Shown: positions 10,955 to 36,111, counted from the first letter of the stretch. The stretch is 40,000 bases of DNA from Patescibacteria group bacterium UBA5532 (GCA_002426885.1 DINU01000017.1:37961-77960), one strand, 5' to 3'. Numbers and translations are program-made. The notes: generated by a model not told the origin, from the sequence alone.

Positions 10955-11584
10955 TTATGGATGATGCCACTTGTCTCAGAGAATATCCTGAAGTGTTGCA
11001 AGTTCATCAGACGGAGCTTGAACTTTCCAGCGTGTTTCCGCATCGATGACTATTCCATCCTGATCCCGTACAAGAAGACTTACTCCCCGTTTATGCTCTA
11101 TATACTGGATCATAGAAGTATCCGTGAGATTCTCATATTCATTGAACCAAGTACTGATCTTAAAAAAAGTTAGACTTTCCTGAGAGAGTACGTTAGTTCA
11201 TGAGTTATACGCATTTGTACGAATACCCTCAAGAGGAAGGATCACAAAATAATTTGCAGGTATCCATTCATGGGTGACAATATGTTTACAATCGATAAAC
11301 CAATAGAGGGTATATGGGACACCAGGAGAAACTACGAGACTCGGATTTACGTCATTCATGAGGTAAAGTGGAATGGGATAGTCATTGTGAAGTCGACATC
11401 CTGTCAGCTCGAGATTCGTTGTCATTGCTTTTCTCGCGGTTCTCTGAGCATAGAGAAGGTCGGAGAGGCGAAGTCATTCATGATAGAGATTTCCATATCC
11501 TTCCTCGAAATAAAACATACTGCTCGCGTAGATAGAAGGGGAAAGTATGAAAAATACCAGAAGGAAGGATATGATCTTTTTCAT
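10955..11584 (-). CDS. Secreted hypothetical protein (209 aa), paralog of 10265..10936
   Basis: MKKIISFLLVFFILSPSIYASS (signal peptide) ... includes track ORF 11198..11425 ... SLLVRDQDGIVIDAETRWKVQAPSDELATLQDILGDKWHHP. Starts 7 nt after the stop of the upstream peptidase gene. Confidence 0.7.
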
Positions 11585-11590
11585 ATAATT

Positions 11591-16467: not shown

Positions 16468-16518
16468 TTCTCCGTGTACTATGTACTATCTGATAAAACT
16501 CGAGATATACTGAAGCAC

Positions 16519-18663
16519 TCACTCAGAAGCGAATTCGGCAGTCGCACTCGGCGTCGCTGTATTCGCGAAGTTCCACTTCGAGATGCGAGAATTTCCGATC
16601 GTATAGAACGAGTCTCCGATATAGAGTGCTCGGTTAATATAGTCATTCGAGTATTCCCAGATGTGATCAGCGATATACGACTCGACGGTCGCTCCTTCAT
16701 AACAATACTGTGGGACATACCGTGTATTTCCTGGACAATATTCTGTACCATCGAGCAGTTTTACACATGTAGCCGTGTCCGTCTCTTTCAGATATTCCTC
16801 ACAGTCTTTTTTCCATGCATCTTCTGCTCCGCTCGCATATGTGATATGTGTGACACGGAATTTCTCTGCGATAGCCTCGGGAGTAATCTCCACTCAGACG
16901 ACTCACTGAAATGCACCCTTCGTGTATCCTGTTGTATCAGAATCCATGAGAAGTGTAGGCATGAGAAGAAGGTCACGATCTGCATCCCAGACGAACGCTC
17001 GTGGATTATCGAGGACTTCAGAATACGATCCGATTCCTCCGAGTACGAGTGACTGTTCCTGTACGGGTTTTGTAACATCAGCGACATTATAGAGATCGAT
17101 TTTTATTCCGGCATTTTGCGTTCCTCAGAAATTATTTTCTTCTGTCGCATATCCAAGTCCGATCAGTCGATCTGCATCATATGGATGAAGATATGTCGAG
17201 TATCCTGGGATTTTCAGCTCTCCGAGTATCTTCGGGCTCGATGCATTACTCAGATCGATGACAAAAAATGGATCAATCTGTTCAAAAGTTACGAGATAGA
17301 GACGATTTCCGATAAATCGAGCGGATTGAAAATTCTCATCTGGGGCAATATCCGTAAGTGTCCCGACGACTTTTCCGAGTGAATTCAGGACTGTAACAGC
17401 AGTACTCTGTGTCTGACCATCGACAGCAGTTACGATGCGAAGATTTTCTGATGCATCCTCATCCATACTATACTGATCGAGTGGACTTCCTGCAATGGTG
17501 TGAGAGTAGACATACTGCGTCTGCTCTCCATCAAAAGCAAAACGATGAACGATCGTCGAAGAGGATGTCACTGGATTCCATATCGTCTTACACATTGCTC
17601 CCGCAGGACACGTGCTCTCTCCGTATGAATATACAGGAGTCGTAAGATAGAGAGAATCATGGGAAAGATGAATCTGCTGATTACTCGAGAAAATTACCTT
17701 CGAATCGAGTGCCCCAGAACTTGCCTTCGTATCAAAACGTACGACGGTCGTAACTGCTGGAGAATAGTATGAATCCGAGAGTGTCGAGAGATCATCTGGG
17801 AGCACCGCTCCGATCTCAGTACAGTCGAGAGAACGTCGACTTTCTGTCTTAAATCCATCTGTAACCGAGTAGGTAGAATCGTAAATATTCGGGATGAGCG
17901 AGCGTGCCGCATATGTATATGGCGTCGCCAAGGTAGTATCAGCACTGTAATAAATGGGAGGAATCCCGAGGTAGTTCGTACCGATGAGTGTCATGATACC
18001 ATCAGAATCGAGACGACTATCAGAGATAGTCCCATCGAGCTGGATCACGCGCTCAAGTGAGACACGAGAACGATCGGTCATATCATAGACCGCTACGATT
18101 CCGCGCTGTGTGTTATCATACCATCCGTACCAGCGTGCGTTATACGTGATGCTTCGAGCTGCGGTCAGAATAAGTGTATTATCCTGGACATAGATCTTTA
18201 CATCATAGTATGATTCTGGAACACGAATATTCTGGACGCTTTTTAGTGTATTCGCATCGAGGATCACGACGGCTTTCTCACCCTCCTGATAGGAGTAAAT
18301 ATATTTTCCATCTGTTTTTACTGTATCTGCCTCATCGATACCGCTTACTTGAATATTCGTCTGTGAGTGTCCTGCTGACATGGTCGATGTGCCGAGTGCT
18401 TGGGGCGCCACCATATCGACAGCGGCTTTCTCATACCATGCTCCTCATCGACTGACTGCATCGGTCATACCAGAGAGCATACTTGCGGTCACTGACTCCA
18501 TCTCTTCACAGGATGCAAATGTGCGATATGAGTATGTCGCCTGCTTTTCTACCGTCCCTCCTGGTGAAATAAGCTCTGTATTATCTGTCGCAAAAGCCTG
18601 TCACATAACGCAGAAAGATGCGAGTAAGAAAGACGCACCCCCTAGAGAAAATACATATCTCAT
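16519..18663 (-). CDS. Secreted beta-propeller domain protein (714 aa; Beta_propel/COG4880-like)
   Basis: Signal peptide MRYVFSLGGASFLLASFCVMGQAFA. Track ORFs 17125..18414 and 16519..16893 are in one frame. The family-typical stretch is YLVTFEQIDPFFVIDLSNASSPKILGELKIPGYSTYLHPYDADRLIGLG. Confidence 0.8.
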
Positions 18664-18739
18664 ATGGAAAAATAAGAAATAAAGTGACGACATTATATCC
18701 CTCTCAAAAAGAGAAGTCAAAAGAAAAAGAGTGAAGAAT

Positions 18740-18768
18740 TTGTGCATTTTTCTGAGATATGCTACAAT
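18740..18768 (+). promoter_or_regulatory. Candidate promoter TTGTGC-N17-(TGc)TACAAT for giant ORF A
   Basis: -35 at 18740-18745 and extended -10 TGCTACAAT at 18760-18768. The -10 ends 20 nt before the ATG at 18788. The promoter-like site upstream of ORF C (24391-24419) has the same geometry. Confidence 0.5.
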
Positions 18769-18787
18769 CGCACCATATACCATAATT

Positions 18788-20809
18788 ATGGCTGAAATAC
18801 CATCATCATCCCCCATCCCTCAAGAAACCACTCCGAAAAAATCTCCAGAAGCTCTGGAAAAACCTCGGAATCCTCAACAGGGAGAGAACAAAGAGGGAGA
18901 GAACAAAGCGCCAGAGACTTCTCATGATGAACAAGAATCTCTGCGATGAAATGTCGAAATTATAAAAATGCTGGAGGAAACAAAATCACCATTTTTTCAC
19001 GCATTTCATGAGCTGGTCACACGCTCTTCACTTTCTGAAAAAATCAAGACGACACTCGATGGATCAGAGCTGACAAAAAGTTATTTCTGAAATATACAAT
19101 ACTCGATGATCCATATGGCGCTCGATGATATCTCCCGACAACAAGGTATTACACGTGGACTCGGATTTATAAATAGTACATTCAGGATGATAGGAAAAGG
19201 CGTACAGACCGATGAGCTCTCACGTAAAGAGGACCAAGCAAATGAAATAAGCCCCCAGATCGAAGCTATGAAGACGCGCGTAACGAGACTCATGGAGGGA
19301 TATCTAAGTACGATCACAGCGACGCTCACACAGGAAAAAGATCGTGCAAAACTCCTTGCACTCTTCCAGAATACAGGGTCCATCCGTGGACTTCTGCAAG
19401 GAAAAACAGTCGATCAAGCGCTCGCGATTACTCTCCCGATACAGTCCCCCGAGACAAAAAGTATAATCGTGACGATGGATACGAAACTCAGCAATCTCTG
19501 AGTTCTTCAGGATAGTGTATTCGATAAAATTGCTGGAATGGGAGTATTCGGGGAAAGTATACTGAAGTTCCTCCGCAAACCACCGATCAGCACACTTCTC
19601 GCTTTTCTTCTCGGCATCGAGTCTCAGGAGGATCTCGAGAGCTATCTCGACTCGGAGATGTGGTCTCGAAAAAGTTTTCTCACACTTCTCTCATTCTGAA
19701 AGGATGGGAAAATGAGTCAGTCAGAAAAACCGATTCCATTTCTCGAGAAAGTCGATATGCGAATGCCTGATGGAAAGCCGGTTACTCGGACGATGCTCGG
19801 GGATTTTTATAAGAATATAAAAGAGTGGAAAATTAACTCGACGACTGCATGATTCTGGCAGAGCATCTTCTCGACGGGAAAACTCGAGTTCTCCGCTGGG
19901 AATACACATAAACGCATCGTATTTCCATGACTGGACGAGATGATTCGAGCACATGCAAACGGGGTCGTCTCCCCCATGGAAGCGATTATGAAGAGTCTGA
20001 ACGAGGGAAAGGTCGAGGATATTCCAGTATCGACTGCAAGTACATCGTGAAAAACAGATAGTAAACCAGAAACTCCAGCCGAGAAAACACCTCCGAAGTT
20101 CGAGGATCTGCGTGCGGGGGATGGATATGAATTCGTGGGTGAGCAGAGTGATCCGACACCCGAGCAGAAACAAGCAAAGATCGGTGAACAAGAAGTCATA
20201 AAGACTCGGAAAATCCAGGAAAAAGGAAAGCCAGACACGATAAAAACCGTCTCAAGTATAGGAGAAAAAATATATTTCTGGGATGAGACGAAGAAAACGT
20301 GGACAGAAGATCCAGATCTCGTCATCAGCAATAGTGCGATCATGAAGAAAGTCATCAATCTGACGGGTAAGCCAGATGATGAGAAAAAACCTGAGGCGAC
20401 ACCGGCGAAGCCAGCAGAAGCAGGTAAGCCGGAAGAATCGAAAGAAGGGGGAGCAGATGAGAAACACATATTCCAAGATGCATTTAAAAAAGCAACGACA
20501 TTTCCATTTACGTACACAGTGGGTGGGGAGGAGAAGACAGTATCATATAATTCTGGAACGGGGGAATTTATGATCGGAGATAAGAAGTACACCCTGACGG
20601 TCAAGAAGAGTACACTCTTCTCGAAGCGTATCGCAGGTATTCAGATGACCCCTGAAACTATTCTCATAAACATGGAAGGATTTTTTGTACCCAATATCAC
20701 ACTCCCAAAGTCAAACGTTCCTATCGCTCAGATATTTGCACTCGAAAAGCGAGATTCCTTGCCTATCGTGCAAGACTGATCTCTCATAGCAACATTTCAG
20801 AGAATATAA
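18788..20809 (+). CDS. Giant-ORF cluster protein A (673 aa), no recognisable domain
   Basis: Track pieces 18731..18949, 19106..19501 and 20135..20779 lie in one frame. I read the gaps codon by codon and found only TGA. The N-terminus MAEIPSSSPIPQETTPKK.. is acidic and disordered. A Lys/Glu/Pro-rich linker lies near 20380-20460. Ends at TAA 20807-20809. I prefer ATG 18788 over GTG 18731 because the promoter-like site lies between them. Confidence 0.75.
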
Positions 20810-20857
20810 CATTCCGAGGTTCATCACCTATAAAATACATCCATAATACTCCACCCT

Positions 20858-23800
20858 ATGTATACTCGCATCCAGAACATCCAGAAGATAAAAGTGTGTT
20901 TTTCCCTTGGGGCGCCATCAGGTATTTCACACTCGACGAGTAACGCTCCCCCAGCACCTGATGCACTTGGAAGAAATCCGAATACGCTCACCTTTGATCG
21001 GTCGAATGATATTCTCTACATCGATGCTATATATCGGACCCTCCGTATCGCGCCAAATGAAGCGCGTATACAGGACGCAAGACAGCTCATACTTCAATAC
21101 TTCGATACATTGTTACAAAATAGGAATTTCCCTCATAAAAACAAGTTACAGAACTTTATTACCTACCTCAATGATCCGACGACCACAAATGGACTCGACC
21201 TGATAAAACGAATTCTCTATACTGAGAATAATCTCTCCCAGCTACATATTACATTTCCAGATAATATAACACAAGCGATCCGCAACATGGAAGATCCTCG
21301 TGTAGAGGAGATGCGTCAAGCCTTCATACAGATGAATGTCGCTCACGAGCAGTATACTACAATTCACTACCCACTCTACTGAGGAAATCATATCGTTCTC
21401 TCTCCGAGACAGATTACACAGCTCGAGAAGACGCTCATTGCTGTAGCGGGACTGGGGGAGGATGAAAGGCTTGAAGATTACTATAGAGGAACTTTTTTTG
21501 ATAATCAAGGTACATATAATCGGAAGACTGTCGAAGATGCGCTCTATGATCTTCAGAATAACTCATGATATCATGATTATTTTCAAAGAAATAAAAAACG
21601 GCAATCTGTATTTGAAGAGCATTTCCGCCAGTACATGTCTCAGAAACTTCTGATCGATGCAAAAACACAGCTCGAAAAAACAAAAACAATAATATTCAAA
21701 AATCAGCGATCACAACTAGAGCTGTTATATGCCGAGAACACGAGACAAAAGACACGTGAGATGATAGGGGGACCTATAGAGACTGCTTATCTCTCACAGA
21801 CATTTCGAGAGAATCCTCGACTTTTTGCAAGAACGGATGACCCATGATTGAATACCGAAATCGCACATCGACTGAGATTGATTATTTCATACTTATTCCC
21901 CCATCTCAGCAATATAAATGGACTCCAGGCCCGACTCATCGAGTATATCATGGACAGACTTGCAGCAAGTGACGATCTCTATAGCAACCCGAGAAATCAT
22001 CTTGGGAATACAAAACCCTCTCGTATCCACTCTATTCAGGAGGGTGCAAACACATTCAGAAACATACTCCAGTCCACGCCTCTCAAAAATGGTGCAAAGA
22101 TGGTGGCATGAACGCTTAATATTGTCATCGTCGATCTTCTATGAAAATGACTCTTGAAACGGGTCGCATGAGAAGGGATACTCAAAAATGGATTATATGG
22201 GTGATCTAAATGGCTGGATGCACAAGTAGGAAAGGCTCAAGACTGGGCAAAAAAAGTTCCAGAAAAGGCATGATTCTTTCGGGCAGTGGCATCGCTTCCA
22301 CGACGAGTACTTGCACGTTGACTCCTTACGATTCCACGTACAGCGACCCTGACAGCGACATGAGTCACAGGTATCACATCATGGTTAGTAAATGGAATAC
22401 TTGGTGTGTCATGAGGAGCATGGGGTATTCTTGATACTGGAATACGGGAGCGTCTCTCTGGAGTGAATCCTGGACTCGATGGAATATTTCCAGCCGTTAT
22501 AGAATCCGTCCGATGAACGCTGATGGCAGCATGATGGGGGGTAGAGAAGATCGCAGAAATTGTCTGAAATAGCATGGAGCAAGCGGAACAGAAGAGGGTT
22601 TTTGAAAGACTTGCGAGGGAGCGATGAATAAAAAATTCTCCTTGATTAGAGGAAGACACGCTCGCGGCTATGGAGCTCGTAAACCTAGAGAGGATGCTGA
22701 GCTCTACCACTATCACGCCTGCTTCGAATCAGGCATCACAGAGTAATCAGGGGAGTGCGGGTGGAGGGAATCCATCATCGAATCCAAATGCAGGGAATCC
22801 ACAACCGAGTTCATCAGGTCCATCAGGAAATCCACCAGCGAATCCATCAGGGGGTCCGAATCCGAATGCAGGAAATCCACCATCGAATCCGAATCCATCA
22901 GGGAGTCCATCAGGGAGTCCATCAGGGAGTCCATCGAGTCCATCAGGGAGTCCACCGAATCCATCGGGTCCATCGGGTCCATCAGGGAGTCCACCGAATC
23001 CATCGGGTCCATCAGGTTCATCAGGTCCATCAGGTCCATCAGGAAGCCCGAATGCAGGGGGAAGTTCACCAACCCCAAGTCAGAGCAATTCAAATTCATG
23101 AACACCACCAGCAAACACAGAGAATTCACCAGAGCCCCCGAGCACAAATACTAAAAACAACTCTACTGAACTTACGAAGCTCTTCGAACATATCGAAACT
23201 GTAACGAAGGATTTGGAGACAGAAAAAGAGAATCTCAATGTCTATTATCAAGAGCTCACAACTGTGAGTTTTACTCCGGATAAGAATGTACGGATGAGGC
23301 GTGAGGTCGCACCATTCTTAGACACCGCGGTCATAGGGGAGACTCTCAAGGCTTTCATAAAACTCAATCACTCACTCAACACCCTTGCAGAGAAAATTAT
23401 TCCAACACTCTGAAAATATAACCTTTCTCGTACACAGCGAGACTTTATACGGAGTCTCGAGACAGAAATAGAGTTATATCGAAAGAAGTATCTTCCAGAA
23501 CTCCAGCGACTCTACCCGAAAGATGCATCTCCTCGGTGATATACCCTTCCAGATGAAAATGAGCTTCTCAAGAGTGACATCTGGGAGATTCTCGATCCAG
23601 ATAACGGTCTCGAATATATGATAGAGCTTATAAGGTGAATCCTGCCCCAGAATCCACCCCCACTAACATGAGAGAATAGGCAAAACCCTAGCCCAACTCC
23701 ACCGGGAAATCCAGAGAATCAAGAAAACTCCCGAGAAAATCCACCACCAGTTCCGAGTCAAAACGGTGCAAGTCAAGACGATCGAATAGTCACAGACTTT

Positions 23801-24301
23801 GACAATCCACGATGAAATATAATATCTTTGATAAACCATAAACATTTAACTAATAAACTTACAAATATAGGTCTCGCGGGAATTGCTATATTAGTTTGTC
23901 ATGCGAAACTAACGTCACGCCATAGAATACTTCAGAACACACAATCAGCAGAAACCATTCAGGACATAGTTACAGCTTATCCAAAATTACTCTCAGAAAT
24001 TCGTAAGGGGCTGCTTTCCATACAGACCAATATCAAGGAGCTCTGACCCCCCATCACAATACAAAGTCCCCAGTATCAACTCGATCAAAAACGGCAAGAC
24101 ATGATAAACACCCTTGAGGCTCATGTCATCGCCCTATTACGAAAAATTGAAGATTATGAAAAAAAGGTGGATGGATGGGACAGTGCCCCACCAACATGAA
24201 TTGAGCTTCTCAAGAGTGACATCTGGGAGATTCTCGATCCGAACGATGGACTTAGAAGTATCACACAACTCACAAGGCAAATCGCACCGAGAAATCCATA
24301 G
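20858..24301 (+). CDS. Giant-ORF cluster protein B (1147 aa), no recognisable domain: Gly-rich hydrophobic segment, P/S/G/N low-complexity linker, duplicated C-terminal modules
   Basis: Track pieces 20858..21382, 21635..21847, 21848..22111, 22670..23101, 23213..23413 and 23828..24046 lie in one frame. All gaps were read codon by codon, with only TGA and no TAA/TAG. Ends at TAG 24299-24301. Confidence 0.75.
22894..23045 (+). repeat. In-frame tandem repeats (12-nt TCCATCAGGGAG = P-S-G-S unit, 9-nt P-S-G units, a ~42-nt higher-order unit) inside ORF B
   Basis: TCCATCAGGGAG appears three times in a row from 22894. TCCATCAGGGAGTCCACCGAATCCATCGGGTCCATC occurs twice, at 22939 and 22978. It encodes ...SPSGSPSGSPSSPSGSPPNPSGPSGPSGSPPNPSGPSGSSGPSGPSGSP. 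Confidence 0.85.
23561..23598 (+). repeat. 38-bp exact direct repeat, copy 1 (encodes ELLKSDIWEILDP)
   Basis: GAGCTTCTCAAGAGTGACATCTGGGAGATTCTCGATCC is identical to 24203-24240. Confidence 0.9.
24203..24240 (+). repeat. 38-bp exact direct repeat, copy 2 (encodes ELLKSDIWEILDP)
   Basis: Identical to 23561-23598. Both copies are in frame in ORF B, 642 bp apart. Confidence 0.9.
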
Positions 24302-24344
24302 AAATTTTTCGTTATTCTATAAATCTCAGAATTCAGAAAAAGAT

Positions 24345-24368
24345 AAAACACTCAGAAATGGGTGTTTT
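24345..24368 (+). terminator. Weak terminator-like hairpin after ORF B
   Basis: AAAACAC-(10 nt)-GTGTTTT. The T-run is limited to the stem, so this is low confidence. Confidence 0.3.
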
Positions 24369-24390
24369 ATTGAAACATATCTCCATTTTT

Positions 24391-24419
24391 TTGCAAAAAG
24401 AAAATCAATATGTTACACT
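24391..24419 (+). promoter_or_regulatory. Candidate promoter TTGCAA-N17-(TGt)TACACT for giant ORF C
   Basis: -35 at 24391-24396 and extended -10 TGTTACACT at 24411-24419. The -10 ends 20 nt before the ATG at 24440, the same spacing as upstream of ORF A. Confidence 0.5.
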
Positions 24420-24439
24420 ATCAATGACTATTATCTTGC

Positions 24440-26836
24440 ATGGCTGATACACCCTCCTCATCACAAGAATCCGAACTCTCGAAAGATATATCTTCTCTGG
24501 AGGCATCCATTGATTCTCTTGGAAATGAGCGTCAGTGATTATCGGGTATAGATGCAGAGATTCGTCGAATACAAGGTATATTCGATAGTGGCGATTATTC
24601 ACCCAAACTAAGGAAAAAATTTACAGAACTGGCCTCACGATTCACTGAGACAAGAAGAGGTATTACAGAGAATGCGAGAAGTGCTACTAATGGAGTAAGA
24701 TTTCAGAATCATCTCGAGAATCCCGGGGCACTCACGCCACTCATGATACGACTTCAGCAGTCAATACAAGAAAATCAACCCACCGCCCACCAACTTGGAA
24801 GCATGGTGCCCATACTCGCCACACTTGAAGCAGGCTGATACTACTACGATCAGGGAACACATCAGATATATAACTCGAAAGATCAGGTGGATCCTGAGCG
24901 TACCCTGATGATTCGGCAGGTGTCCGAGTGGAAAAAGCTTTGGAGACCAGCACAGGATTTACGTAACAGAATCAATGCCCCAAAGGGTGATCCAAAGGAC
25001 CATATCAATGCTATGCTTGCAAAAATACCCCATCGGAATGCACCACTCACACTTTCTAATAACCCTACACCAGAGCAAGAAACACGTATTCGAAGTCTTG
25101 TCGTGAATTCGCGACTATCTCCTGACAATAAAGCATATATTCTCGCGTATCTCAGAGATCCTACTGCTTTTCCTGCTCCTACTCAGGAAGATAAAAAAGC
25201 ATCGCAAGATGCAGCAAAAAAAATGGGAACAGCAGGAAATACCTTTCTAGAAGAGCATAATCTCAAACCGATGGATCCGATGACATGGGAAAAATTTACA
25301 CAAAATCCTCTCACCGTTATTCCACACTTCCTGAAAAATATTGGTCCCGCTGGGGCGCTGGGGTTGATGGCATTTATGTTTACACGCATGATCGGAGCGA
25401 AGAGTAAATTTATCACCTACCCGATGGGGATCCTCGCTGGCGCTATTTTTATGCAAGGAATAGGACTCTGGCGTCCTACTCTTGATGCCCTGAGCGGAAA
25501 AGTCGACACAGAAAGCTGGGTGTATAAATTCTTCGGGAGTATCGGACTCAGTATCAGTGATGGCTTCAGCTGGCTCTGAGAGAAAATGGGGGATCTCGCC
25601 GGCTGGAGTGTCAATGCGAAGAATGAAGCGGTATTCTGGTACTACATGAGTAACTACACGATCATGGAGGGTGGGCAGAGAAAAGAGTTTGTCAATGCAA
25701 AAGCCTCGACACTCGATAACCTTACATGAGAAAAATGGAAGAAGACCATGTCATCTCTCAATCTAGAAAAGGCAGGAAACAAAGATCTCGTACAAGAAGC
25801 AGATCTGGAGGTGGCACGAGAACGCTTGATACTCACAAAAAATAAAGCACTCGAGAAACTACGAGTAGAGAAACCAAATAAAACAGAGTCACAACACGCC
25901 GCTGAGTTACGAGGTATCATGCAGGCAAAAACTCTTCTCGAGTTTGTAAAGTGGGCGTACGAAGCTCCGAAAATACCACCAACAGTAGGATGAGTAACAC
26001 CGGTCGCAACAGCACCAGCCACATCAACATCAAGAACACCAGCAACACCACAAATCCAGAGCGAAAGCGCTCCTGCTTCTCTGAAGGAAACAGCCCCCTC
26101 ACTGAAGACACTCGCAGAAGGCATCCCCCAGGTGGGTGATGGGGCAATAGACACCTCACGGAAGAAAAGTACACTTCCCGAGATACAAAAAGAACTTGAA
26201 ACCATAACAAGTAAAACAACCGAGATAGCCAAATGACTCGATGAAAAGAAGCTCCCACTACAAGACTATACAACTCAGAGAACATACCTTCTTGGGTGGG
26301 TGAATGCGCTCCGTGCAAGCATGATCGAGATTGCGAAGCAATCATGAGTTGATACAGAATCACTTCGTACTATGATCGATCAGATATCCACATTCGCAGG
26401 AAATCTCGATTCTCTCCTCCCAGATCCAGAAAAACTCAAGACAAAAAAACCATACTCAATAAGCAGAAGGACGTATTCAACATGGATCGAGGATATAGAA
26501 CTCACGACAAACGAGCTCGGAGACATGAAAGTAAAACGATACTTCGGAACGAGTGGAAATGGAGTGGATTTTTACATAGTGCAGATCGGGGAGACACACT
26601 ACATCCTGAGAATGGATGAAAATGCCTCGCTTTGAATCGGAATTGATCCTCAGCTTCTCGAGATAAATGCTACCGACTCTGATAATGTTATTTTAACGGG
26701 TATACAGACAAAGAATTTTTATAATATGGAGCTCACGGATGCTGGGACGTTCATCGATCCTCAAGTGGGTCGCAATAATATGAGATGAATCCAGTCACAG
26801 CTCGATGCTGTGAAGACCTTCGCAGTATGATCATAG
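24440..26836 (+). CDS. Giant-ORF cluster protein C (798 aa), no recognisable domain: helical N-terminal part, two central TM helices, Thr/Pro/Ala linker, C-terminal globular part
   Basis: Track pieces 24887..25579, 25748..25993 and 26372..26635 lie in one frame, and the gaps were checked codon by codon. N-terminus MADTPSSSQESELSK. Hydrophobic pair GPAGALGLMAFMFTRMIGA / ITYPMGILAGAIFMQGIGLW near 25340-25480. Ends at TAG 26834-26836. Confidence 0.75.
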
Positions 26837-26895
26837 GAAAAAGTGGCTGATAATTTCTGATCTCATAATTTATTTCTTGCTTTTTATTCTTCTCC

Positions 26896-29577
26896 ATGAC
26901 CCAAAAACGTGACCCTCAAGTGGAAATACAAACGACTAAAGCAGAAATGCCAACGCCCGAAACACAAGCGCCTTCTCCGGAACAGCAAGCGAAAGAAAGA
27001 GAGAAACAAGAGGCACTCGAGAAGACACAGGCAGACATCCAGGCTCTGAATCTTGACTGGGGAAGCTTTCTCGCGGAAGCACATCTCACAGCTGAGCAAG
27101 TTGCTGAGATCATGTACACACATCGGGAAGCATGACCTGCATTTCGTGTGAATCCACGAGAAACAGTGGAGACACAAGTACGCTGACTCTTCGAACTCGA
27201 GCGAGTCTTGAGTACGCTTTTTCTCGCGATCCACGACGTGAATCCGAAGCCACAGAATCTTACAGAACTTGTCCAGATATTTACACCCGAGCGTATTCAG
27301 GGTATTCCAGCATCCGAGCGACCATTTCTCCAGCTGATGCTCTGGAAGCTCCGCACGATCGTCCGAGAGGAAAACAGAGCCGTATACCAGTATCTGAATC
27401 AGATCTGGCAGAAGACGATCCTCACGACAGAGATATCAAGATGATTTTCGAGTGGAATCACTGATCTCGGAAAAACTATTGCAGAGGGAAAAGCACCAAG
27501 CGAGGGGAATGAAATTATAAATTTTGTAAAGAATCACTGGGGAAAAATGCTTCTTATCGGAACGGCAGGTTATGGACTTTATAAGCTTTTTGGTGGAGGA
27601 AGAAATAAAGAAAAGGCGGGAGGATGATTTTTCGCATGGCTTTTTTCTCTCCTCTCGAAGATCCCCGGCATCGGATGAATCGGGATGCTCGTCACACTCG
27701 GAGGAATCTTCGGGCTCTTCGGTACACAGCTGATGGCGTGGATAAAAGATATCGATGGAACTGTCGGAAAGGTCGCGAAGTTCGTCGCAAATCCGACACT
27801 CGAATGACTTCTCGATATTGCTGGTGCCTGATGACTCCCACACAGTCTCGAGGGCATGGCATGATGAGCGGTAGGCTGGGCAAAAACACAAATCGGCATG
27901 AATGAAGCAAAAAGTGAAGAGAGTCGTGATGCTCGTGCTGAAGCCGTGGGAGCGTCATCACTGGCACGATATACTTTTATGAAACCCTGGGAAAAAGCAT
28001 CCGACCTCCAGAAAAGCATTTTTCATTCTGGAACAAAAGATATAAAAGAACTCCCAAGATTCTCGAAAGAATGAGCAGAAGAGCTTCTCCAGAAACACAG
28101 AGCACGATACACAGAAATTATGAATAATCCTGATGAAGTCGTGCAGAAACGAGAAATAGAAATTCGGGAACAGTTTCAAGATGGCAAACATCCAAAATAT
28201 GGAACGATAGAGGATGGAATCAAGCTTCTCGATACTGATCAGAAAAGTCTCGCAGGGATCAATGATCTCATTTCATCAGAAGAAGCGAAAGGACGTTATC
28301 TTCGATATCTCGCTCTCAGTGAGGTGGGTCTCGAAGCGCGAGCACTCGAGTATCACATGACCGCGCTTCGAGTGGGCATGGACAGTGAAAATGGTGCCCG
28401 GATTTATAAAGAATTCATGGAACGAGCTCGGACGCCTGACAAATATCTTCTCGAGCTCCAAGCATTTCAGGTACAAGCTGCAGAGAATCTCCATACATTT
28501 CCCGCATGAACGAATGAATCGCTTCGAGAATATGCACAGCTTCGCGGGAAACTCGAAGATCTCCTCGAGATAAAAAATACACAGGTCGATACGCTCATGC
28601 GAGAAATTCAGGAAGAAGTACAGAGGCAATGATGATATGCAACAGGAAAGAATCTTACCACAGAGGAAAAAGCAAAGAATGCAAAAATCAATGCTGCGAT
28701 CGAACCAAAGATGAGAAAAGTCGAAACAATCGAGAAAAAAGTCGCAGAAATATCGACATGATTTATGAAAGAAAATGAGCAAGTAATAATCCGAATGCTT
28801 CAGAATGAAGGCGTCGGTAAGACGCTCGCCTTTCGATTTCGTCAGTATATTCCGAATATATGAAATATAAAAAATGTCGAATGATTATGAAAAAAATGGA
28901 AAGCCTATCGGGATCAGAGAAATCCGACTTCCGTGCACGATTTCGAAACGGGGGGAAAAAATAAATACTTCCGAATGAGTACTGTCGGTGGATGACTCAT
29001 AATTACGGGACTCGGTGCTGGCTGGGCATTCGCGAACAGTGCTGATGGCGAAGGTATCGATAATGCTCTCGCGACAGGCGGTCGAATCGCAGGTGGAATG
29101 GTCCCACTCCTCGCAGAGTATCTCGATGCACGCGACGCGATCGAGGCACTGAGCCGGGGAGAACATCTGAATGCCATGATCTATAGTGGAGCATTCGTCG
29201 CGGATGTCGCATCCACCCTGATGATCGCTTCAGGAATCTTCTCAGGAGTCGGATTCTGACTGAAAGCAGGAAAATCTGCCGTGCTTCAAGGAATAAAAAA
29301 TGGTGTGGTGAGAAAAGTAACACTCGAATGAAATGAACTCGTCATAAAATGAGCAGGGGGAGCAGTTCTAAAAAAAGTGGCTGTCTCAGCGAATGATCTT
29401 AATCAAGTGAGAAAGGTGCAAGAGCTTGTGGGAAAATGGGGAAAACATGCACTTTGGTCAGGAATGACAGTAAGTCTCGGCGGGACAGGTGTCGCCGTCG
29501 CAGGCGCCTATCTCGATGATAACGGAAAACTCGATATCGATGATCATACACCTCCAGGAAATACAGAAAATAAGTAG
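26896..29577 (+). CDS. Giant-ORF cluster protein D (893 aa), no recognisable domain: multi-pass membrane protein with glycine-zipper-like helices
   Basis: Track pieces 26896..27135, 27208..27444, 28120..28509 and 29377..29577 lie in one frame. The whole 27133-29577 stretch was read codon by codon (22 TGA, no TAA/TAG). Segments include GGGFFAWLFSLLSKIPGIGGIGMLVTLGGIFGLFGTQLMAWI and VGGGLIITGLGAGWAFA...AMIYSGAFVADVASTLMIASGIFSGVGFGL. Ends at TAG 29575-29577. Confidence 0.75.
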
Positions 29578-29596
29578 GATCCCCCACACAACCACC

Positions 29597-29624
29597 AAAA
29601 AAATGCACTCTCGTGCATTTTTTT
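29597..29624 (+). terminator. Intrinsic terminator after ORF D
   Basis: AAAAAAATGCAC-TCTC-GTGCATTTTTTT, a perfect 12-bp stem including the A/T runs, 20 nt after the stop. Confidence 0.7.
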
Positions 29625-29638
29625 ATAGTTCTAGAGAA

Positions 29639-29713
29639 TGGTTGCGGAGGTGTGAATCGAACACACGACCTCAAGGTTATGAGCCTTGCGAGCTGCCACT
29701 GCTCTACTCCGCG
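29639..29713 (-). tRNA. tRNA-Met(CAT), initiator type (fMet), CCA encoded
   Basis: Minus strand: CGCGGAG TA GAGC AGTGGCA GCTC G CAAGG CTCATAA CCTTG AGGTC GTGTG TTCGATT CACAC CTCCGCA A CCA (75 nt). It forms a clean cloverleaf with anticodon CAT and a C1:A72 mismatch. It is very similar to E. coli tRNA-fMet (CGCGGGG..GAGCAG..GCTCG..GGCTCATAACC..GGTCG..CCGCAACCA). Confidence 0.9.
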
Positions 29714-29739
29714 GAAATCATCTCGCATCTCGCTGGATT

Positions 29740-29934
29740 CTATCTCTTTCCTGCTGTTCGATAAAATGATCGGATAATCGCCTGTTCACGAACCTTTCGC
29801 TTCGATGGAGCACGATGATGTTGCTGTGTATTCTTGAGGCGATTCGCAGTACGTGTCTGAAAAAAAGCCTTTTTATATCGGAGAATAAGTTTATCATTGG
29901 ACTCACCGTCTTTACGAACTGCGTATGCAATCAT
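29740..29934 (-). CDS. rpsU: 30S ribosomal protein S21
   Basis: 64 aa: MIAYAVRKDGESNDKLILRYKKAFFQTRTANRLKNTQQHHRAPSKRKVREQAIIRSFYRTAGKR. It is basic and fits the S21 pattern (V.v..gE..D.al.rfKr......R....yekPS..R). I chose the internal Met of track ORF 29740..29994 because the upstream 20 aa are hydrophobic junk and a promoter-like site overlaps them. Confidence 0.75.
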   Translation of the reverse strand: MIAYAVRKDGESNDKLILRYKKAFFQTRTANRLKNTQQHHRAPSKRKVREQAIIRSFYRTAGKR

Positions 29935-29966
29935 AGAATAGAAATAGAAAAAAGAAATGCCCGCAA

Positions 29967-29994
29967 ATAATATGAAAAGAAAAGAAGAAGTCAA
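29967..29994 (-). promoter_or_regulatory. Candidate promoter TTGACT-N16-TATTAT for rpsU
   Basis: On the minus strand: TTGACT (29989-29994) and TATTAT (29967-29972), with the -10 ending 33 nt upstream of the rpsU ATG. Confidence 0.45.
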
Positions 29995-30339
29995 ATAAAT
30001 GTGTAATTCTTTTCTCCTCTGAGAAAGTTACGAACATCAGAATCCTGAATGACAGAATTTAATACGCAGCTATGATGACCTCGTGCGTGCTACTCGTCTC
30101 TTCTTTGTTTATCATAATCTGGATACGCCCAGGCTTCGAGACTACTTGCTACAGCGACTCAGACTTCTTGCACCTCTCTCGTTGTATCAGGGGGCACATT
30201 TCGCCAAAAATCCTCTAACATCTTCGCACAATACAGTCTTTTCTCTCGTTCTCATGCATCTTCCGGGGACTCAAGAGACATAAGAGTGAATTATGGACGA
30301 TCTGATTATATACTTTCTGATCGAGAATCAATCAAAAAA

Positions 30340-30711
30340 CTACTCGAGTGCCTGTGCCATCACCTCGATGACCATCATCACCATCCAGATAATCAGCACG
30401 AGTTTTGGCTGAGAAATCCCGTAGATCGAGAGTCCGAGTGTGCCGATAGTGCCGATCATGATGAGCGTCGCCTGTCTGAGAGACGCATTCATCGTCGCGA
30501 CGTAGACTTCTCCGCGGTAGTATATTTTCTTAATAAAAAAAAGGACAAAAGCGAAGAGGCTCCCGCCAGCAAGTATCACCGAGAAAGCCATCAGACTGAA
30601 AGCAAGTGAAAAATCTCATTCCGGATTCATATAGTAAAAAAGCAAGAGCGCAGAAGAGAGGCTCGAAGCGAAGATAACAAGCAGGATGATCGAGTACAGA
30701 CGAAGAGTCAT
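30340..30711 (-). CDS. Small integral membrane protein (123 aa, about 4 TM)
   Basis: MTLRLYSIILLVIFASSLSSALLLFYYMNPEGDFSLAFSLMAFSVILAGGSLFAFVLFFI...LVLIIWMVMMVIEVMAQALE. Track ORF 30340..30591 extended upstream through one TGA. Confidence 0.65.
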
Positions 30712-30878
30712 GGAGGGGGAAATCACAGGGGGTACACGTGTTATAATACAGAAAATGGAATTCTTTCAAGTTTCTCTTTTTTTCCTGTTCTGAATTTTCA
30801 TAAGGAAAATACCGTACAAAACTGGAAATTTTTCTCTTTTTCGGTATATTCAGGATGTTTATTTTTATAAAAAATCTT

Positions 30879-31409
30879 ATGACAGACGATCAGACACAGG
30901 ATCCACAGGGAGATACACCAGGTACTTCACCCGAAGAAAGTATGGAGGAGACAGGAACGACGCCCACACTAGAAGCGAATCCAAGTGAGGAAGTCGCACA
31001 ACTGAAGGAAAAACTTGCTCGCGCACAAGCAGACTACCAGAATCTTCTCATGCGCCAAGAACGCGATCGTATAAGCTCTTTCAGTATGATCAGCGGAGAT
31101 ATTCTCGCGCGGATACTCCCGACACTCGACCACCTCGAGCGTGCACTCGACATGAAGAAAGACGCTGAGAATGACGCATTCGTCGATGGAATCCGCTCGA
31201 CTTATAATGGGCTCGTGAAGACGCTCGAATCACTCGGTGTAAAAGGATTCGCATCAGTCGGCGAAGAAGTCGATGCAGACAAGCACGAGGTCGTCATGCA
31301 GTGAGCAGGCGAGGAGGGGAAAGTCATCGCCGAGATCGAGCGAGGATACACACTCCACGATCGCATCCTGCGACATGCGAAAGTAATCGCCGGAAATGGA
31401 GCACAATAA
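30879..31409 (+). CDS. grpE: Nucleotide exchange factor GrpE
   Basis: Track ORF 30855..31304 extended through TGA. ...LKEKLARAQADYQNLLMRQERD...ILPTLDHLERAL...GLVKTLESLGVKGFASVGEEVDADKHEVVMQGAGEEGKVIAEIERGYTLHDRILRHAKVIAGNGAQ. The start could instead be 30855. Confidence 0.9.
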
Positions 31410-32370
31410 AGCCAAACCACTTCCGATGGTATTGCTCGCACGGATCAAGACGATCACTCCGAGTTTTTCTGACGAGATTATCGAGAGTTTCTCACGGGAA
31501 CGAGTGGGATCTTTTCGGGTAAATGGAAATAAATTCCCATGAGAAGAAAGACTTCCGAGAGAGATTTCGGAAGAATTCTCAGAAAGAAAAATTGCCGTGG
31601 AGGCATTTTCAGCACTTCCATGAGTCTTCACATTTTCTCGAGAACATGAGTACGCGATTAAGGGAACCCGAGCATTTTATGATGGAAAAATCTATCTCCA
31701 GGGGATTTCCAGCATGCTTCCAGCGCTCCTACTCGAGCCAAAAGTAGATGAAAATATTCTCGATGTCTGCTCGGCGCCATGATCGAAGACGACGCTCATG
31801 AGTGTCCTCATGAAGAACACAGGGAAGATTACTGCCATCGAACAGAATCAGATTCGTATGGAAAAACTGAAGCACAATACACGACTTCAGTGAGCGACGA
31901 ATATTTTCTTCGTGAAGTCAGAAGCTGAGAAATATCTCAGAGATCACGAAGGGTCATATGATCGGATTCTGCTCGACGCGCCTTGTAGCGCCGAGGGGCG
32001 AATATCCACGAAGAATGAGAAAACATATGGCTTCTGGTCGCTCCAGAATATCGAGAAAAAATCCGAACTGCAGTATACACTTCTCGAGGCAAGTGTGAGA
32101 CGGCTCGCTCCGAATGGTATACTTCTCTATTCGACGTGTACGTTCGCGCCGGAGGAAAATGAAGCGGTGATTTCTCGTATTCTTGCATCTGATCCGAGTC
32201 TCGCACTCATCCCACTTACCGAATCGATTCCTGATTCTATTCCGCATATTCCTGGAATTCAGACATTTCAGGGAAAAATATTTTCTGAAGATATCGAGAA
32301 AACAGTACGCATTCCCCCGAGTCGATATACAGAAGGATTTTACATGGCGAAGATCCAGAAAAGAAAATAG
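31396..32370 (+). CDS. RNA (cytosine-C5)-methyltransferase, NOL1/NOP2/Sun (RsmB/RsmF-like) family
   Basis: 324 aa. FYDGKIYLQGISSMLPALLL, LDVCSAPGSKTT, ILLDAPCSAEGRI and LLYSTCTFAPEENE are the SAM and catalytic-Cys motifs. The start overlaps the grpE end by 14 nt. Ends at TAG 32368-32370. Confidence 0.85.
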
Positions 32371-32426
32371 AGATTGTTTTTTCTGTGAATCACGTAGAAT
32401 ACTTTCGATTTTTTTATCATTTCTAT

Positions 32427-33005
32427 ATGTACGCATACTGCGCGGGGACACTGATGACGATCATGGACGAGAAAGCGGTAATCCTCGTGGAAGGGACGGG
32501 ACTCGGACTCGAAGTCCTTCTCTCTCCCGAAGCACTGGGGAAATATCTCATCGGAGGAAAATGTGAATTTCCACTCTATCATCATCGGACAGAAGCCTCA
32601 GAAGTGCTTTTCGGCTTCGCGAATGATATCGAGAAAAATGTCTTTCAGAAGCTTCTGAAAGTAAACGGAGTCGGAGGAAAGACGGCGCTCGCGATCCTCG
32701 GACTTGGCGTCGATGCGATCGTCCGAGCGATCAATCTCCATGATGATAAGCTCCTCTCTGGCGTCCCATGAATCGGGAAGAAAACCGCGCAGAAGATCGT
32801 TGTCGAGCTCGCAGGCTCGATCGATTTCCAGTCATTTACATCTTCTGGAAGTACAGCGAAAAACAGCGGAAATACTCAGCTAATCACATCACTCGTCCAG
32901 ATGGGATATGATAAAACTCGTGTCGAAGAGACGATCGAATCCCTCGATTCGAGTCTCTCGATCGAGCAGAAGACGATCGAGGCGATCCGACTCCTCTCGA
33001 AGTAG
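32427..33005 (+). CDS. ruvA: Holliday junction DNA helicase RuvA
   Basis: 192 aa: MYAYCAGTLMTIMDEKAVILVEGTGLGLEVLLS..., HhH motifs LLKVNGVGGKTALAILG and LSGVPGIGKKTAQKIVVEL, then C-terminal domain III. Track ORF 32385..32771 extended through TGA. Ends at TAG 33003-33005. Confidence 0.9.
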
Positions 33006-33006
33006 G

Positions 33007-33774
33007 CTATCGTGCGACTTTCGGAAGTGGGATACTTCCTTCCCACTCTTTTCGCTGTGAGAGTGCATTTTCAGCTGAGTCCTGCTCTCACTTTTTTTTC
33101 GAAGTTCCAGAACCTTTTCCGAGAATAATGCCCCCGAGACTGACAGAAATCTCGTAGGTTTTGTTATGATCTTTTCCTGACTCATTCTCAAGTGTGTAGA
33201 TCGGAGTCTGTCACCACTCAGCCTGCGTCAGCTCCTGAAGATACGACTTCGGATCGACGTAGAGCCCTTTTTCGAGGATACGCGGAAGTGTCACATAAAT
33301 ATGTGTCAGGATAAATTCCTTCGTATACGCAAGCCCAAGATCGAGATAAAGCGCGCCGATAATCGCCTCGAGTGTATTCGCGAGAATATAGGGGTTATCC
33401 TGTCATTGTGCGAGGATTTCACCACGAGAAAGCTGAATTATATCAGAAATCTGAAGCGTCCGAGCGACTTCTGCAAGATTGCGTCCTCGGACGAGCGCGG
33501 AGCGAATATCAGTCATTTTCCCTTCTGGATACTCCGGAAAATCTTCGTAGAGTTTTTCAGTCGTAATAAACTCGAGAATCGCATCACCGAGAAATTCGAG
33601 ACGTTCATTCGAAGTGGTATATCATGGAACATTCAAGTTCAGGACCGAGCGATGAATACTCGCAAGTCTGTAGAGTGAACGGTCACGAGCGGGAATCTGG
33701 AGGGAGGAGAGAAAAGTATCTCACCTTGCTTCAAACTCTTCTCGCGTATAACGAAGAGCAAAAGATGGGGTCAT
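33007..33774 (-). CDS. rnc: Ribonuclease III
   Basis: 255 aa. Signature NERLEFLGDAILEF, then LANTLEAIIGALYLD, and a C-terminal dsRBD (DPKSYLQELTQ...GKGSGTSKKKGEQDSAENAL). Its stop lies 1 nt from the ruvA stop (convergent genes). Confidence 0.92.
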
Positions 33775-33779
33775 AAAAA

Positions 33780-34061
33780 TTAGTGAAGGTCAGGGGATTT
33801 TGGTCAGAATCTATCGCGATCGCCTTCTTCATCGAAGTTATTCAGAATATCTTGATTCCAGCGAGCGAGCGCATACATCGTATCATTGAGGCTCATATTT
33901 CTCCAGTCGATTATGAAATCATCGGGACTATTATCCTGATCATTTCCCGAGACGAAATACGCCATCATAACAGAAAATCATTGCTCCTGTGCGATCTGAT
34001 TAATGCGATGAATATAGTCCTGAACTTTCTGGGTAAATTCTTCTCGACTGATATTTGCCAT
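33780..34061 (-). CDS. Hypothetical protein (93 aa, acidic)
   Basis: MANISREEFTQKVQDYIHRINQIAQEQGFSVMMAYFVSGNDQDNSPDDFIIDWRNMSLNDTMYALARWNQDILNNFDEEGDRDRFGPKSPDLH. Two TGA codons. It ends 5 nt upstream of the rnc start. Confidence 0.5.
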
Positions 34062-34139
34062 AGGAGTAATAAATGGTATGAAGAGTATACAAAAAGCCGG
34101 AAAACACGCAAAATTTTTTTCACAAGGAGAAAAAGAGGC

Positions 34140-34167
34140 AAAAAAAAGTTCCTCACAGAGAGGAAAC
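34140..34167 (-). terminator. Intrinsic terminator about 190 nt downstream of argS
   Basis: On the minus strand: GTTTCCTC-TCTGT-GAGGAAC followed by TTTTTTTT. Confidence 0.6.
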
Positions 34168-34278
34168 TGATGTGTGCAAGATTTTTCTTCCAGAAGATTC
34201 CGCGAGAGCACTCAGATTCGAGTCCTGGATTTTCCTCGTTTTTTCTTTTTGTGTTTTCTCTAGAAACTTTTGTATCAA

Positions 34279-34301
34279 TGGTGCCCAGGGGGGGACTCGA
34301 T
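34279..34301 (-). other. Orphan tRNA 3'-end fragment (T-loop half + T-stem 3' strand + acceptor 3' strand + ACCA)
   Basis: The minus strand reads ATCGAGT CCCCC CCTGGGC A CCA. This has exactly the spacing of a tRNA 3' end, but there is no complementary GGGGG T-stem 5' strand, no GCCCAGG acceptor 5' strand, and no D or anticodon arm upstream. Confidence 0.35.
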
Positions 34302-34359
34302 CACTCTCCGCCGTGATCGGCTCTCTTCGTTCTCGAAGCCAACTATTTGGTAAAATCAT

Positions 34360-36111
34360 CTACATCTCAAAAGGCATCTCTATGCCAAGAAGTTGAAAGC
34401 CCATCTTGAGACGTTTAGCAGATAAAGATACCAAAAGTGTTCGAAGATTTTTCAATCATGTATTTTCTTCGTGTACAATACTTGGAGTATGGGCGTAAAA
34501 ACTATTAAATGCTCATGCAAGGTTATAACAATATTGAGCTAATATGTGAGGTTTATGATTTTTTAGTACTTCATCAACTTTTTCATCAAAGATCACGAGA
34601 GTCTTAATCAGTTCCTTATCATCTTCGCTTAATGTTAACTCAATTTCTGATGAGATTTCCGCAGGATTACCTAGTTGTTCTCAGAGTTTCCTAGCTCGGA
34701 CATAGGCATACTGGATATATGGTCCGCTATTTCCCTCGAAACTCAGAGCCTTATCCCAACTAAAGACGATATTCCTCTCTCGGTCTTGCATGAGGTAGCT
34801 ATACTTCAATCCCCCAACAGCTATTTCTCGGATATCCTCATCTGATAGAGAGCGTCATTTTTCCGTGAGAATATTCTTTGTTCTAACAAATGCCTCATCA
34901 ATCAAGTTATCCAGACGGATAATATTCCCTTTTCGGGTACTCATGGCTCACTCAGGGAGTGATATAAATCCGTTTGGAGCATGAATTAATTCAACGCCAT
35001 CATCTACCCATCCAGCCATCTTTGCAACAGCAAAAACTTGTTGAAAATGAAGTTGTTGACGAATATCAGTGCAATAAATAATCTTCTTTGGGTCCCACCC
35101 ATTTGTTATACGGTATTTTATACAGGCAAGGTCACTGGCAAAGTAGCCATGAGTTCCATCATGTTTCTGTAGAATATTTGAAGGAAGCTTCGTGTTTTCA
35201 GGAAAACTGATAGATACACTCCCATCCTCATTTCTTTCGGCTATTCACGCTTGTACAAGTTCTTGTACTACATCCTTCATGCTATATTGGAGCTCTGGAT
35301 ACTCTCCGATCTTTGGGAGAGGGAGTCCCTCATAAAAACTTTCACCAATAGCCACATCAGGTCTCACATGGAGAAGATCTATAGTTTCTTGCATTCCTTT
35401 GAGAGAATGTGCTGTAAATTCGGACCAGAGTTTCATATTCTCTGCATCTCATTCAGAAAGTTTTTTGAATTCTGCTCTACATGTCTCATCCACAGAAGCA
35501 TCTCATTCTCCGTCGTCCGGCTCAATAAGAGCAGATATTTTTTGATAGAGTTCAAGTAGGTGATTTACTGGATCTGTTTCAAGTTTTTTTGCATCTCACC
35601 AACGTTTCCATTATGCGATAAGGCGTCAAAATATACCTCACCAGTCCCCAGTATGCACATCACCAATTACCCTCATTCATTTATGGCGATATATATTACA
35701 AAATACCTGACCAATGGAAGGGGTACATATATGTCATATATGAAGAGGTTTCCCAATATTAACACCGATATAGTCAACTACTACTGTTCAATTTTGTTTC
35801 CCTGATAGATCTTGCCCCCTTGATGGTTCTCACAACATCTCAATAAATGCTTTATCTGTCAGACAGAGGTTGATATATATGCCAACAGTACTTACGAGTC
35901 GAAAAGTCTCATCATTTCATTGAAGTACTGGTTGTATTTCTGCTGATAGTTCTATCGGACTTCGTTTGACCGCTTTTGCAAGCGTACCTATATTGAAGCA
36001 GTAATCAGCATTTTGATTTTTCGGAGGAATTCATAATTCCATGGACTTGGCAGCATCAGCTCCGTATAAATCCTTGATTGTAGTAGCAACGATGTCTTGG
36101 AGTTTTTTCAT
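34360..36111 (-). CDS. argS: Arginine--tRNA ligase
   Basis: 583 aa under table 25. MKKLQDIVATTIKDLYG..., class I signature NIGKPLHIGHICTPSIGQ, ...GAMSTRKGNIIRLDNLIDEA (KMSK-equivalent), and the anticodon-binding C-terminus ...YCYNLAGAFNSFYAH...LLGIEMPFEM, which ends in Met as is typical for ArgRS. About 22 TGA Gly codons. Track ORF 35245..35436 is in this frame. Confidence 0.93.

Follow-up and report, generated by a model that had tools for sequence, protein, structure and literature searches.

A four-gene block encoding putative orphan protein families in a UGA-recoding bacterium of the Candidate Phyla Radiation

The DNA analysed here is a 40,000-nt stretch (the window) of Patescibacteria group bacterium UBA5532 (GCA_002426885.1, DINU01000017.1:37961-77960), in which an earlier note, a reading of the stretch by a model, had singled out a block of four long genes at positions 18740-29624. 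Open reading frames (ORFs) were called with TAA and TAG as the only stops and TGA read as glycine (translation table 25), and gene starts were placed at the first ATG. The block contains the following genes, here named A to D:

18788-20809, plus strand, gene A: 673 amino acids, ATG start, 8 in-frame TGA codons read as glycine
20858-24301, plus strand, gene B: 1147 amino acids, ATG start, 25 in-frame TGA codons read as glycine
24440-26836, plus strand, gene C: 798 amino acids, ATG start, 10 in-frame TGA codons read as glycine
26896-29577, plus strand, gene D: 893 amino acids, ATG start, 22 in-frame TGA codons read as glycine

The four reading frames and their relatives

A-D are consecutive, co-directional frames with no internal TAA or TAG, separated by gaps of 48 nt (A-B), 138 nt (B-C) and 59 nt (C-D); together they take up 10.8 kb, about 27% of the window. 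Coordinates, lengths, starts, stop codons, gaps and TGA-only junctions between the shorter fragments were all exactly as the earlier note had claimed, and only its word 'giant' is too strong for proteins of 673-1147 amino acids. The reading of TGA as glycine was shown independently of A-D: TGA occurs in the window's RecA and UvrA at invariant glycines of the Walker A motif GVSxSGKSS, the ABC signature LSGxE and the RecA motif ALGxG, positions that we take to be universally conserved. TGA frequency is 26 per 1000 codons in housekeeping genes versus 18.5 in the block.

On both strands of 18700-29600, table 25 opens antisense and off-frame ORFs of 400-667 amino acids inside real genes (for example 26884-28884, minus strand). 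As antisense frames in the block stay open for up to 667 amino acids, ORF length alone is weak evidence for a gene here, and it is a poor criterion in code-25 genomes. With the TGA-free fragment C 134-379 as the query, HMMER was run exhaustively against 1.84 billion representatives. It recovered the window's own table-11 fragment (P0001, 100% identity), three false matches driven by repeats, and two true relatives, P0002 (45% identity) and P0004 (41%). P0002 lies on contigs of 1.4-1.5 kb (L003 and L004) that encode a C homologue of 39% identity. Sewage and wastewater assemblies supplied the 17 contigs that carry P0004, of which the longest (L005, 12 kb), read with table 25, has the whole A-B-C-D block in the order and orientation of the window:

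L005 2186-3889: orthologue of A, 28% identity
L005 3932-6553: orthologue of B, 28% identity
L005 6761-8578 and 8702-9520 (two ORFs): orthologue of C, 28-31% identity
L005 9573 to the contig end: orthologue of D, 36% identity, E 1e-145

E-values for these orthologues ranged from 1e-13 to 1e-145, with D the best conserved of the four. On a neighbouring sewage contig D ends with the same hydrophobic C-terminus and is followed by nothing conserved, so that D is the last gene of the block in both lineages. Upstream of the L005 block lie rplL, dnaJ and a SpoU-type methyltransferase gene; the block in the window is flanked by a beta-propeller gene and tRNA-Met, and A-D are the only genes common to the two loci. 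The retention of gene order between different flanks, with A-D alone in common, argues that the block is a self-contained module whose order was kept while its surroundings changed. Traces of the block in relatives, on which the earlier note had made its proposal depend, are thus present in L005. The dnaJ gene of L005 (660-1385) is upstream of the block and the window's grpE (30804-31409) about 1.2 kb downstream of it, a placement that may be coincidence or a trace of an old dnaK-region linkage.

To judge from their sequences, A-D are known so far from three lineages of code-25 (TGA=Gly) bacteria of the Gracilibacteria/Absconditabacteria type within the Candidate Phyla Radiation (CPR). No further copies came from GTDB species genomes, JGI metagenomes or IMG/VR in pattern scans whose sensitivity is confined to a few exact peptide patterns; the queries for GTDB and JGI were C, the D alignment and the back-translated motif MVPLLAEYLDA. 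A word-index protein search with D, A and C returned no match yet missed even the 100% identical self fragment, and its negatives are unreliable because code-25 genes are fragmented under table 11, which breaks A-D into pieces of 30-250 amino acids.

Several lines of evidence established that A-D are genuine genes. With a codon-usage model trained on the window's housekeeping genes, the annotated frame scored best of six for each of A-D, and the orthologues lie in the sense frame. In the orthologues, glycine (GGN or TGA) stands opposite the TGA codons of the window's A-D at about the rate seen for GGN-encoded glycines: in D, glycine was found at 11 of 20 aligned TGA positions versus 36 of 67 GGN positions, and in the reverse direction 17 of 25 TGA codons of the relative align to a glycine in the window. 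Strains of the relative differ by 33 synonymous and 36 non-synonymous changes, giving a ratio of non-synonymous to synonymous polymorphism (pN/pS) of 0.33 and indicating that the block evolves under purifying selection. The earlier note's four UGA-hidden frames are therefore true genes.

The assembly was matched in other samples. A Logan contig from an independent sample is 100% identical across window positions 24211-34337, and a third sample is 99.8% identical across 1.9 kb. Contig L002 (SRR1171181) has four differences from the window, all within 17 nt of gene C (24589-24605; codons 50-56), three of which are non-synonymous (S50R, D52N and K56E).

Protein architecture, transcription signals and surroundings

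Conservation in the block peaks in hydrophobic helices of C and D that are rich in small residues (Gly, Ala and Ser). These helices and the other main features of B, C and D are as follows:

22715-23152, plus strand: P/S/G/N low-complexity linker of B, matched in the orthologue by a shorter P/S/G linker in the same place
23330-23656 and 23987-24298, plus strand: two copies of a duplicated C-terminal domain of B (32% identity, E 1e-15)
25265-25498, plus strand: most conserved part of C, amino acids 276-353 (52-68% identity in 25-amino-acid windows versus two lineages)
27496-27738, plus strand: hydrophobic module 1 of D, amino acids 201-281 (hydrophobic at 218-281), with the motif VKNHWGKxLLxGTAGY
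28975-29271, plus strand: hydrophobic module 2 of D, amino acids 694-792, with the near-invariant helix GRIxGGMVPLLAEYLDAxDA and a conserved Asp at amino acid 770

Identity was highest in the following windows of 25 amino acids:

D 724-748 (the helix GRIxGGMVPLLAEYLDAxDA): 84%, the maximum of the block
D 201-225: 76%
C 300-324: 68%
D 754-778: 60%

Gene C encodes a helical or coiled N-terminal region, a conserved hydrophobic hairpin (amino acids 297-347), a further helical region, a T/P/A linker (amino acids 505-560) and a helical and beta C-terminal module (amino acids 605-798). The two hydrophobic helices within amino acids 276-353 are NIGPAGALGLMAFMF... and YPMGILAGAIFMQGIGL. An AlphaFold model of fragment C 134-379 was all-helical, with a predicted local distance difference test score (pLDDT) of 51. 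In six of six strains of the relative, gene C is split into two ORFs exactly at the T/P/A linker; the gene may be truly divided, or a frameshift or a different start may lie behind the pattern. Between the two parts (L005 8576-8730; also L006 and L008-L010) there is a short ORF in another frame (8596-8727), which overlaps the start of the second part. D comprises an N-terminal domain of about 215 amino acids, hydrophobic module 1, a charged helical region of about 400 amino acids, hydrophobic module 2 and a C-terminal hydrophobic segment (amino acids 854-875). Kyte-Doolittle hydropathy of the C and D segments is 1.3-2.0, and their positions are conserved across lineages.

A is built differently, from an acidic disordered N-terminus, a helical region, two linkers, a small beta domain (amino acids 451-511) and a beta-rich C-terminal domain (amino acids 566-673); no hydrophobic segment was found in it on the Kyte-Doolittle scale. 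A single-sequence AlphaFold model of fragment A 422-663 had a pLDDT of 45, with the beta domain at 451-511 reaching about 72. B has a helical N-terminal domain (amino acids 1-405), a Gly-rich amphipathic region (406-600) whose hydrophobicity is not conserved, the P/S/G/N linker and a helical C-terminal domain. Degenerate tandem repeats of 9, 12 and 30 nt in the linker DNA (22829-23043) make this tract a possible length-variable region. Each copy of the C-terminal domain terminates in ELLKSDIWEILDPxxGL; the relative has a single copy. In general form, the end motif of the C-terminal domain is IWxxLDxxxG.

The earlier note had described Gly-rich hydrophobic helices in B, C and D; their conservation is clear in C and D and unconvincing in B. 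Its report of no classical signal peptides agrees with what we found, in that none was apparent at the eight N-termini of A-D in both lineages, which are acidic and rich in S, T and P. Glycine-zipper motifs, (G/A/S)xxxGxxxG, numbered six in the window's D versus 3.6 +/- 2.0 in shuffled sequences (at least six in 88 of 500 shuffles), two in the D orthologue versus 1.9 expected, and none or one in C, at positions that are not conserved. A membrane-permeabilising toxin of the glycine-zipper type (TelE, Tde1 or VacA) was rejected, as the motif is neither enriched nor conserved.

Transcription signals around the block are:

18740-18768, plus strand: promoter-like site before A, TTGTGC, 17 nt, TACAAT; extended -10 TGcTACAAT, with the TG one base upstream
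24342-24371, plus strand: hairpin after B, free energy -14.2 kcal/mol, z -2.9, without a long U tract
29597-29624: bidirectional intrinsic terminator between D and the convergent tRNA-Met (29639-29713, minus strand)

The strong terminator that the earlier note had placed after D stands: its 12-bp hairpin is flanked by A and T runs, with a free energy of -12.4 kcal/mol and a z score of -6.8. Its 'good' promoter-like site before A does not, since both this site and the one before C match the consensus at only 8 of 12 positions, below the scan threshold, and were not called; the scan found no more sites in the window than in shuffled sequence. The weak promoters likewise detract from the suggested division into modules A-B and C-D, with which the hairpin after B and the B-C spacer are compatible, this spacer being the longest in both lineages (138 nt in the window and about 207 nt in L005, from the assigned first-ATG starts). 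The hairpin after B is suggestive of an attenuator or terminator between the two pairs. No gene in the window is preceded by a Shine-Dalgarno sequence, so the absence of one before A-D is uninformative, and Rfam gave no element in the block, only the flanking tRNA.

The window is otherwise an ordinary chromosomal stretch of a code-25 bacterium, with uvrA, trxB, recA, nrdD, thrS, a PF09826 beta-propeller gene, tRNA-Met, grpE, rsmB, ruvA, rnc and argS. Three proteins with signal-peptide-like N-termini, judged by eye, are encoded near the block (10955-12931 and 16486-18720, both minus strand): g12, which has no domain; g13, a C39-like/C10 peptidase (E 2e-7); and g18, the PF09826 beta-propeller (E 8e-109), which is transcribed divergently from A. 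The arginyl-tRNA synthetase gene (34360-36111, minus strand) has a single in-frame TAA at codon 167 (35611-35613), between ...GDWGGIFGRLIA and WKRWGD..., after which the frame is open for 417 more codons; a nonsense mutation, a mistake in the assembly or recoding within an essential gene might each account for it. An IS30-like transposase gene (HTH_38, E 5e-15) at 38963-40000, plus strand, is cut by the window end.

A tentative membrane-anchored complex and its alternatives

Searches against known families gave little to build on. Pfam yielded no significant match for A-D, their orthologues or the isolated conserved modules, NCBIfam none for A-D, and PDB sequences and profiles none. The PHROGs search, made with B, C, D and their orthologues and without A, gave best E-values of 0.06-0.3 that were inconsistent between orthologues. 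A PDB profile match of D 409-527 to 2pgc_A, an uncharacterised protein (E 0.0045, 18 bits), was set aside as too weak and uninformative. PADLOC gave one match only, between the coiled-coil region of C and LmuB (E 4e-4, 17.6 bits), and no partner genes accompany it. No match was found by tblastn in 50,697 phage records or 72,556 plasmids, nor in IMG/VR, and Foldseek searches of the PDB with the C 134-379 and A 422-663 models gave nothing at E < 1. Paralogy of A with C or of B with D was rejected by blastp and by hhalign, with probabilities below 2%. By these comparisons A-D represent four mutually unrelated predicted protein families, and the earlier note's view of them as proteins with no known domain held throughout; of the matches that it had named as refuting its proposal (VirB6/TrbL proteins, tape measures and known adhesins), none turned up in these searches.

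We propose, with a probability of about 0.4, that A-D form a single complex, restricted to these lineages and held in the membrane of the bacterium itself; that the proteins assemble, that they are membrane-anchored, which way they face and what they do in the cell are what we infer from the features described above. C and D would be the anchors, inserted via their conserved Gly/Ala/Ser-rich helices, and their long charged helical stretches would serve as a scaffold. The acidic D helix GRIxGGMVPLLAEYLDAxDA would be a candidate working site; together with the conserved Asp in the next helix, it may form a polar site or bind ions in or at the membrane, and so would be more than a passive anchor. 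Soluble or peripheral roles would fall to A, which has no hydrophobic segment and a beta-rich C-terminus, and to B, which is helical and has a flexible Pro/Ser/Gly linker. Because A-D have no signal peptides, the most economical topology would place most of the complex at the cytoplasmic side. Transcription would begin ahead of A and finish at the hairpin that follows D, with a possible restart or attenuation in the spacer between B and C.

In support of this proposal, the conservation peaks coincide with the hydrophobic segments of C and D, and A has no such segment; an operon is supported by the short gaps, a terminator only after D and the shared order in a second lineage. The finding of no phage, plasmid or defence signal for the block also speaks in its favour. 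Membrane embedding, which the earlier note had suggested, is a plausible reading of C and D, because hydrophobic helices are their best conserved stretches; for B the case is weak, and for A there is none. Several points weigh against the proposal. The Kyte-Doolittle values are marginal and the helices hold polar residues, so that they could be amphipathic or buried instead of transmembrane; extracellular proteins that span a cell wall typically have Pro-rich linkers such as those of B and C, which would favour surface exposure and suit it as well as a cytoplasmic placement; the fragment models are of low confidence (pLDDT 51 and 45), and a fold-level homology to a known system may exist; and both the interaction and the expression of the four proteins are predictions. 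A bolder extension, which we regard as unlikely, is that A-D would be the core of an unrecognised membrane machine of a UGA-recoding CPR subclade, for example an energy- or ion-coupled envelope complex with the acidic D helix as its working site, serving the host-dependent lifestyle (contact, uptake or polarity) and made of four founding families with no relatives elsewhere.

Equally unlikely in our estimate is the idea of the earlier note that A-D, or C and D, are exported by a non-Sec route into a host or prey membrane, where hydrophobic hairpins would insert them in the manner of type III secretion system (T3SS) translocators or chlamydial inclusion membrane (Inc) proteins, for attachment or permeabilisation. 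The paired hydrophobic helices of C and D, long helical regions, polar disordered N-termini and missing signal peptides would suit such a role, as would the secreted proteins adjoining the block (the beta-propeller and the C39-like peptidase) and the description of code-25 lineages as episymbiotic or predatory with elaborate surfaces (PMC8080830). However, no secretion apparatus gene was found in the 40-kb window, and in neither lineage does the block contain or adjoin genes for a secretion apparatus, a chaperone or an ATPase; Pfam and NCBIfam gave no match to a pore-forming or adhesin family; glycine zippers are neither above shuffled expectation nor conserved between orthologues; and a pN/pS of 0.33 with 84% identity in the D core resembles housekeeping constraint more than an arms race.

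A cytoskeleton-like scaffold of a polar or attachment structure is slightly less probable again. The Mycoplasma proteins HMW1, HMW3 and P65, on which it is modelled, are large and signal-less, have acidic Pro-rich regions, are operon-encoded and are attached to the inside of the membrane. A-D have comparable acidic Pro/Ser/Thr-rich low-complexity regions and long helical segments, again with no signal peptides, and their only weak matches are of the coiled-coil type (SMC-related and LmuB). The resemblance is compositional, however, with no Pfam match to an EAGR box or terminal-organelle family, and the best conserved parts are hydrophobic helices and not helical rods.

It is very improbable that the block is the remnant or cargo of a mobile element, encoding phage tape-measure or ejection proteins or membrane proteins of a type IV secretion system (T4SS; VirB6, TrbL or TraG). 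Tape-measure and ejection proteins are long and helical, contain Gly-rich hydrophobic segments and are often sequence orphans, and an IS30-like transposase lies about 9 kb from the block. Against this stand the PHROGs result for B, C, D and their orthologues, with nothing below E = 0.06, and the phage, plasmid and IMG/VR negatives; no TrbL/VirB6/TraG-type profile matched in Pfam or NCBIfam at E <= 1, no VirB4/VirD4 ATPases or other T4SS genes occur in the flanks of either lineage, and no phage genes occur in the 40-kb window or the 12-kb relative. In each lineage the block is bordered left and right by housekeeping genes, integrase, capsid, tail and ATPase genes are missing, and GC content and codon usage of the block match those of host genes. 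Together, these database negatives, flanks and host-like composition largely refute the mobile-element origin. Lastly, that A-D are not genes but chance frames opened by ignoring TGA, as the many spurious long ORFs of table 25 (including the antisense ones within the block) might suggest, is refuted by the codon score, TGA-Gly alignment, pN/pS and orthologue matches reaching E = 1e-145 in the sense frame versus 1e-6 to 1e-13 in mirrored antisense frames.

CPR bacteria that use code 25 depend on hosts, have been cultured barely or not at all, and carry mostly unannotated genes. The A-D block, which fills about 27% of the window, is kept across lineages of about 30% identity and is under purifying selection, is a concrete, testable candidate for a lineage-specific cell-envelope function. 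Families of this kind are systematically invisible in public protein catalogues, owing to the shattering of genes by table 11 and as seen in the self match that the word-index search missed.

Comparison with known systems

At the level of sequence families A-D appear to be new, as four orphan families absent from the literature searched. This novelty rests on the absence of matches, and full-length structure comparison could assign them to a known fold class. Proteins of the EsaA/YueB/Pip type have a long helical domain between transmembrane segments, and D likewise has its charged helical region of about 400 amino acids between hydrophobic modules; unlike them, D has a 215-amino-acid N-terminal domain and no ABC-2-type membrane domain, no YhgE/Pip or EsaA profile matched it in NCBIfam or Pfam, and no type VII secretion system genes are nearby. 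T3SS translocators and chlamydial Inc proteins are, like C (amino acids 297-347) and D (218-281), signal-less helical proteins with a central hydrophobic pair, a feature that is not specific; A-D are much larger, show no sequence match to them, and neither locus has chaperone or injectisome genes.

Phage tape-measure proteins are also long and helical with Gly-rich hydrophobic stretches and no conserved domains, but the block has no PHROG, phage or IMG/VR match and does not adjoin tail genes. With Mycoplasma HMW1, HMW3 and P65 the block shares acidic Pro-rich low-complexity sequence, the lack of signal peptides, an operon arrangement and a wall-reduced or host-dependent bacterium; the likeness is in composition only, with no EAGR box or other match to terminal-organelle proteins.

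Among code-25 bacteria, the predator Vampirococcus lugosii has a membrane proteome rich in very large proteins with a proposed role in host recognition (PMC8080830). Those proteins are 1392-4163 amino acids long and mostly have known interaction domains (WD40, PKD and others), in contrast to A-D with 673-1147 amino acids and none. Orphan modules are common in Gracilibacteria and Absconditabacteria genomes, and a specialist would not be greatly surprised by one more. Narrow, co-occurring modules of unannotated protein families have been described in code-25 CPR genomes of these groups (Jaffe et al. 2021, PMC8406219); those are modules of presence and absence and not the operon A-D, and they are the general phenomenon to which the A-D block belongs.

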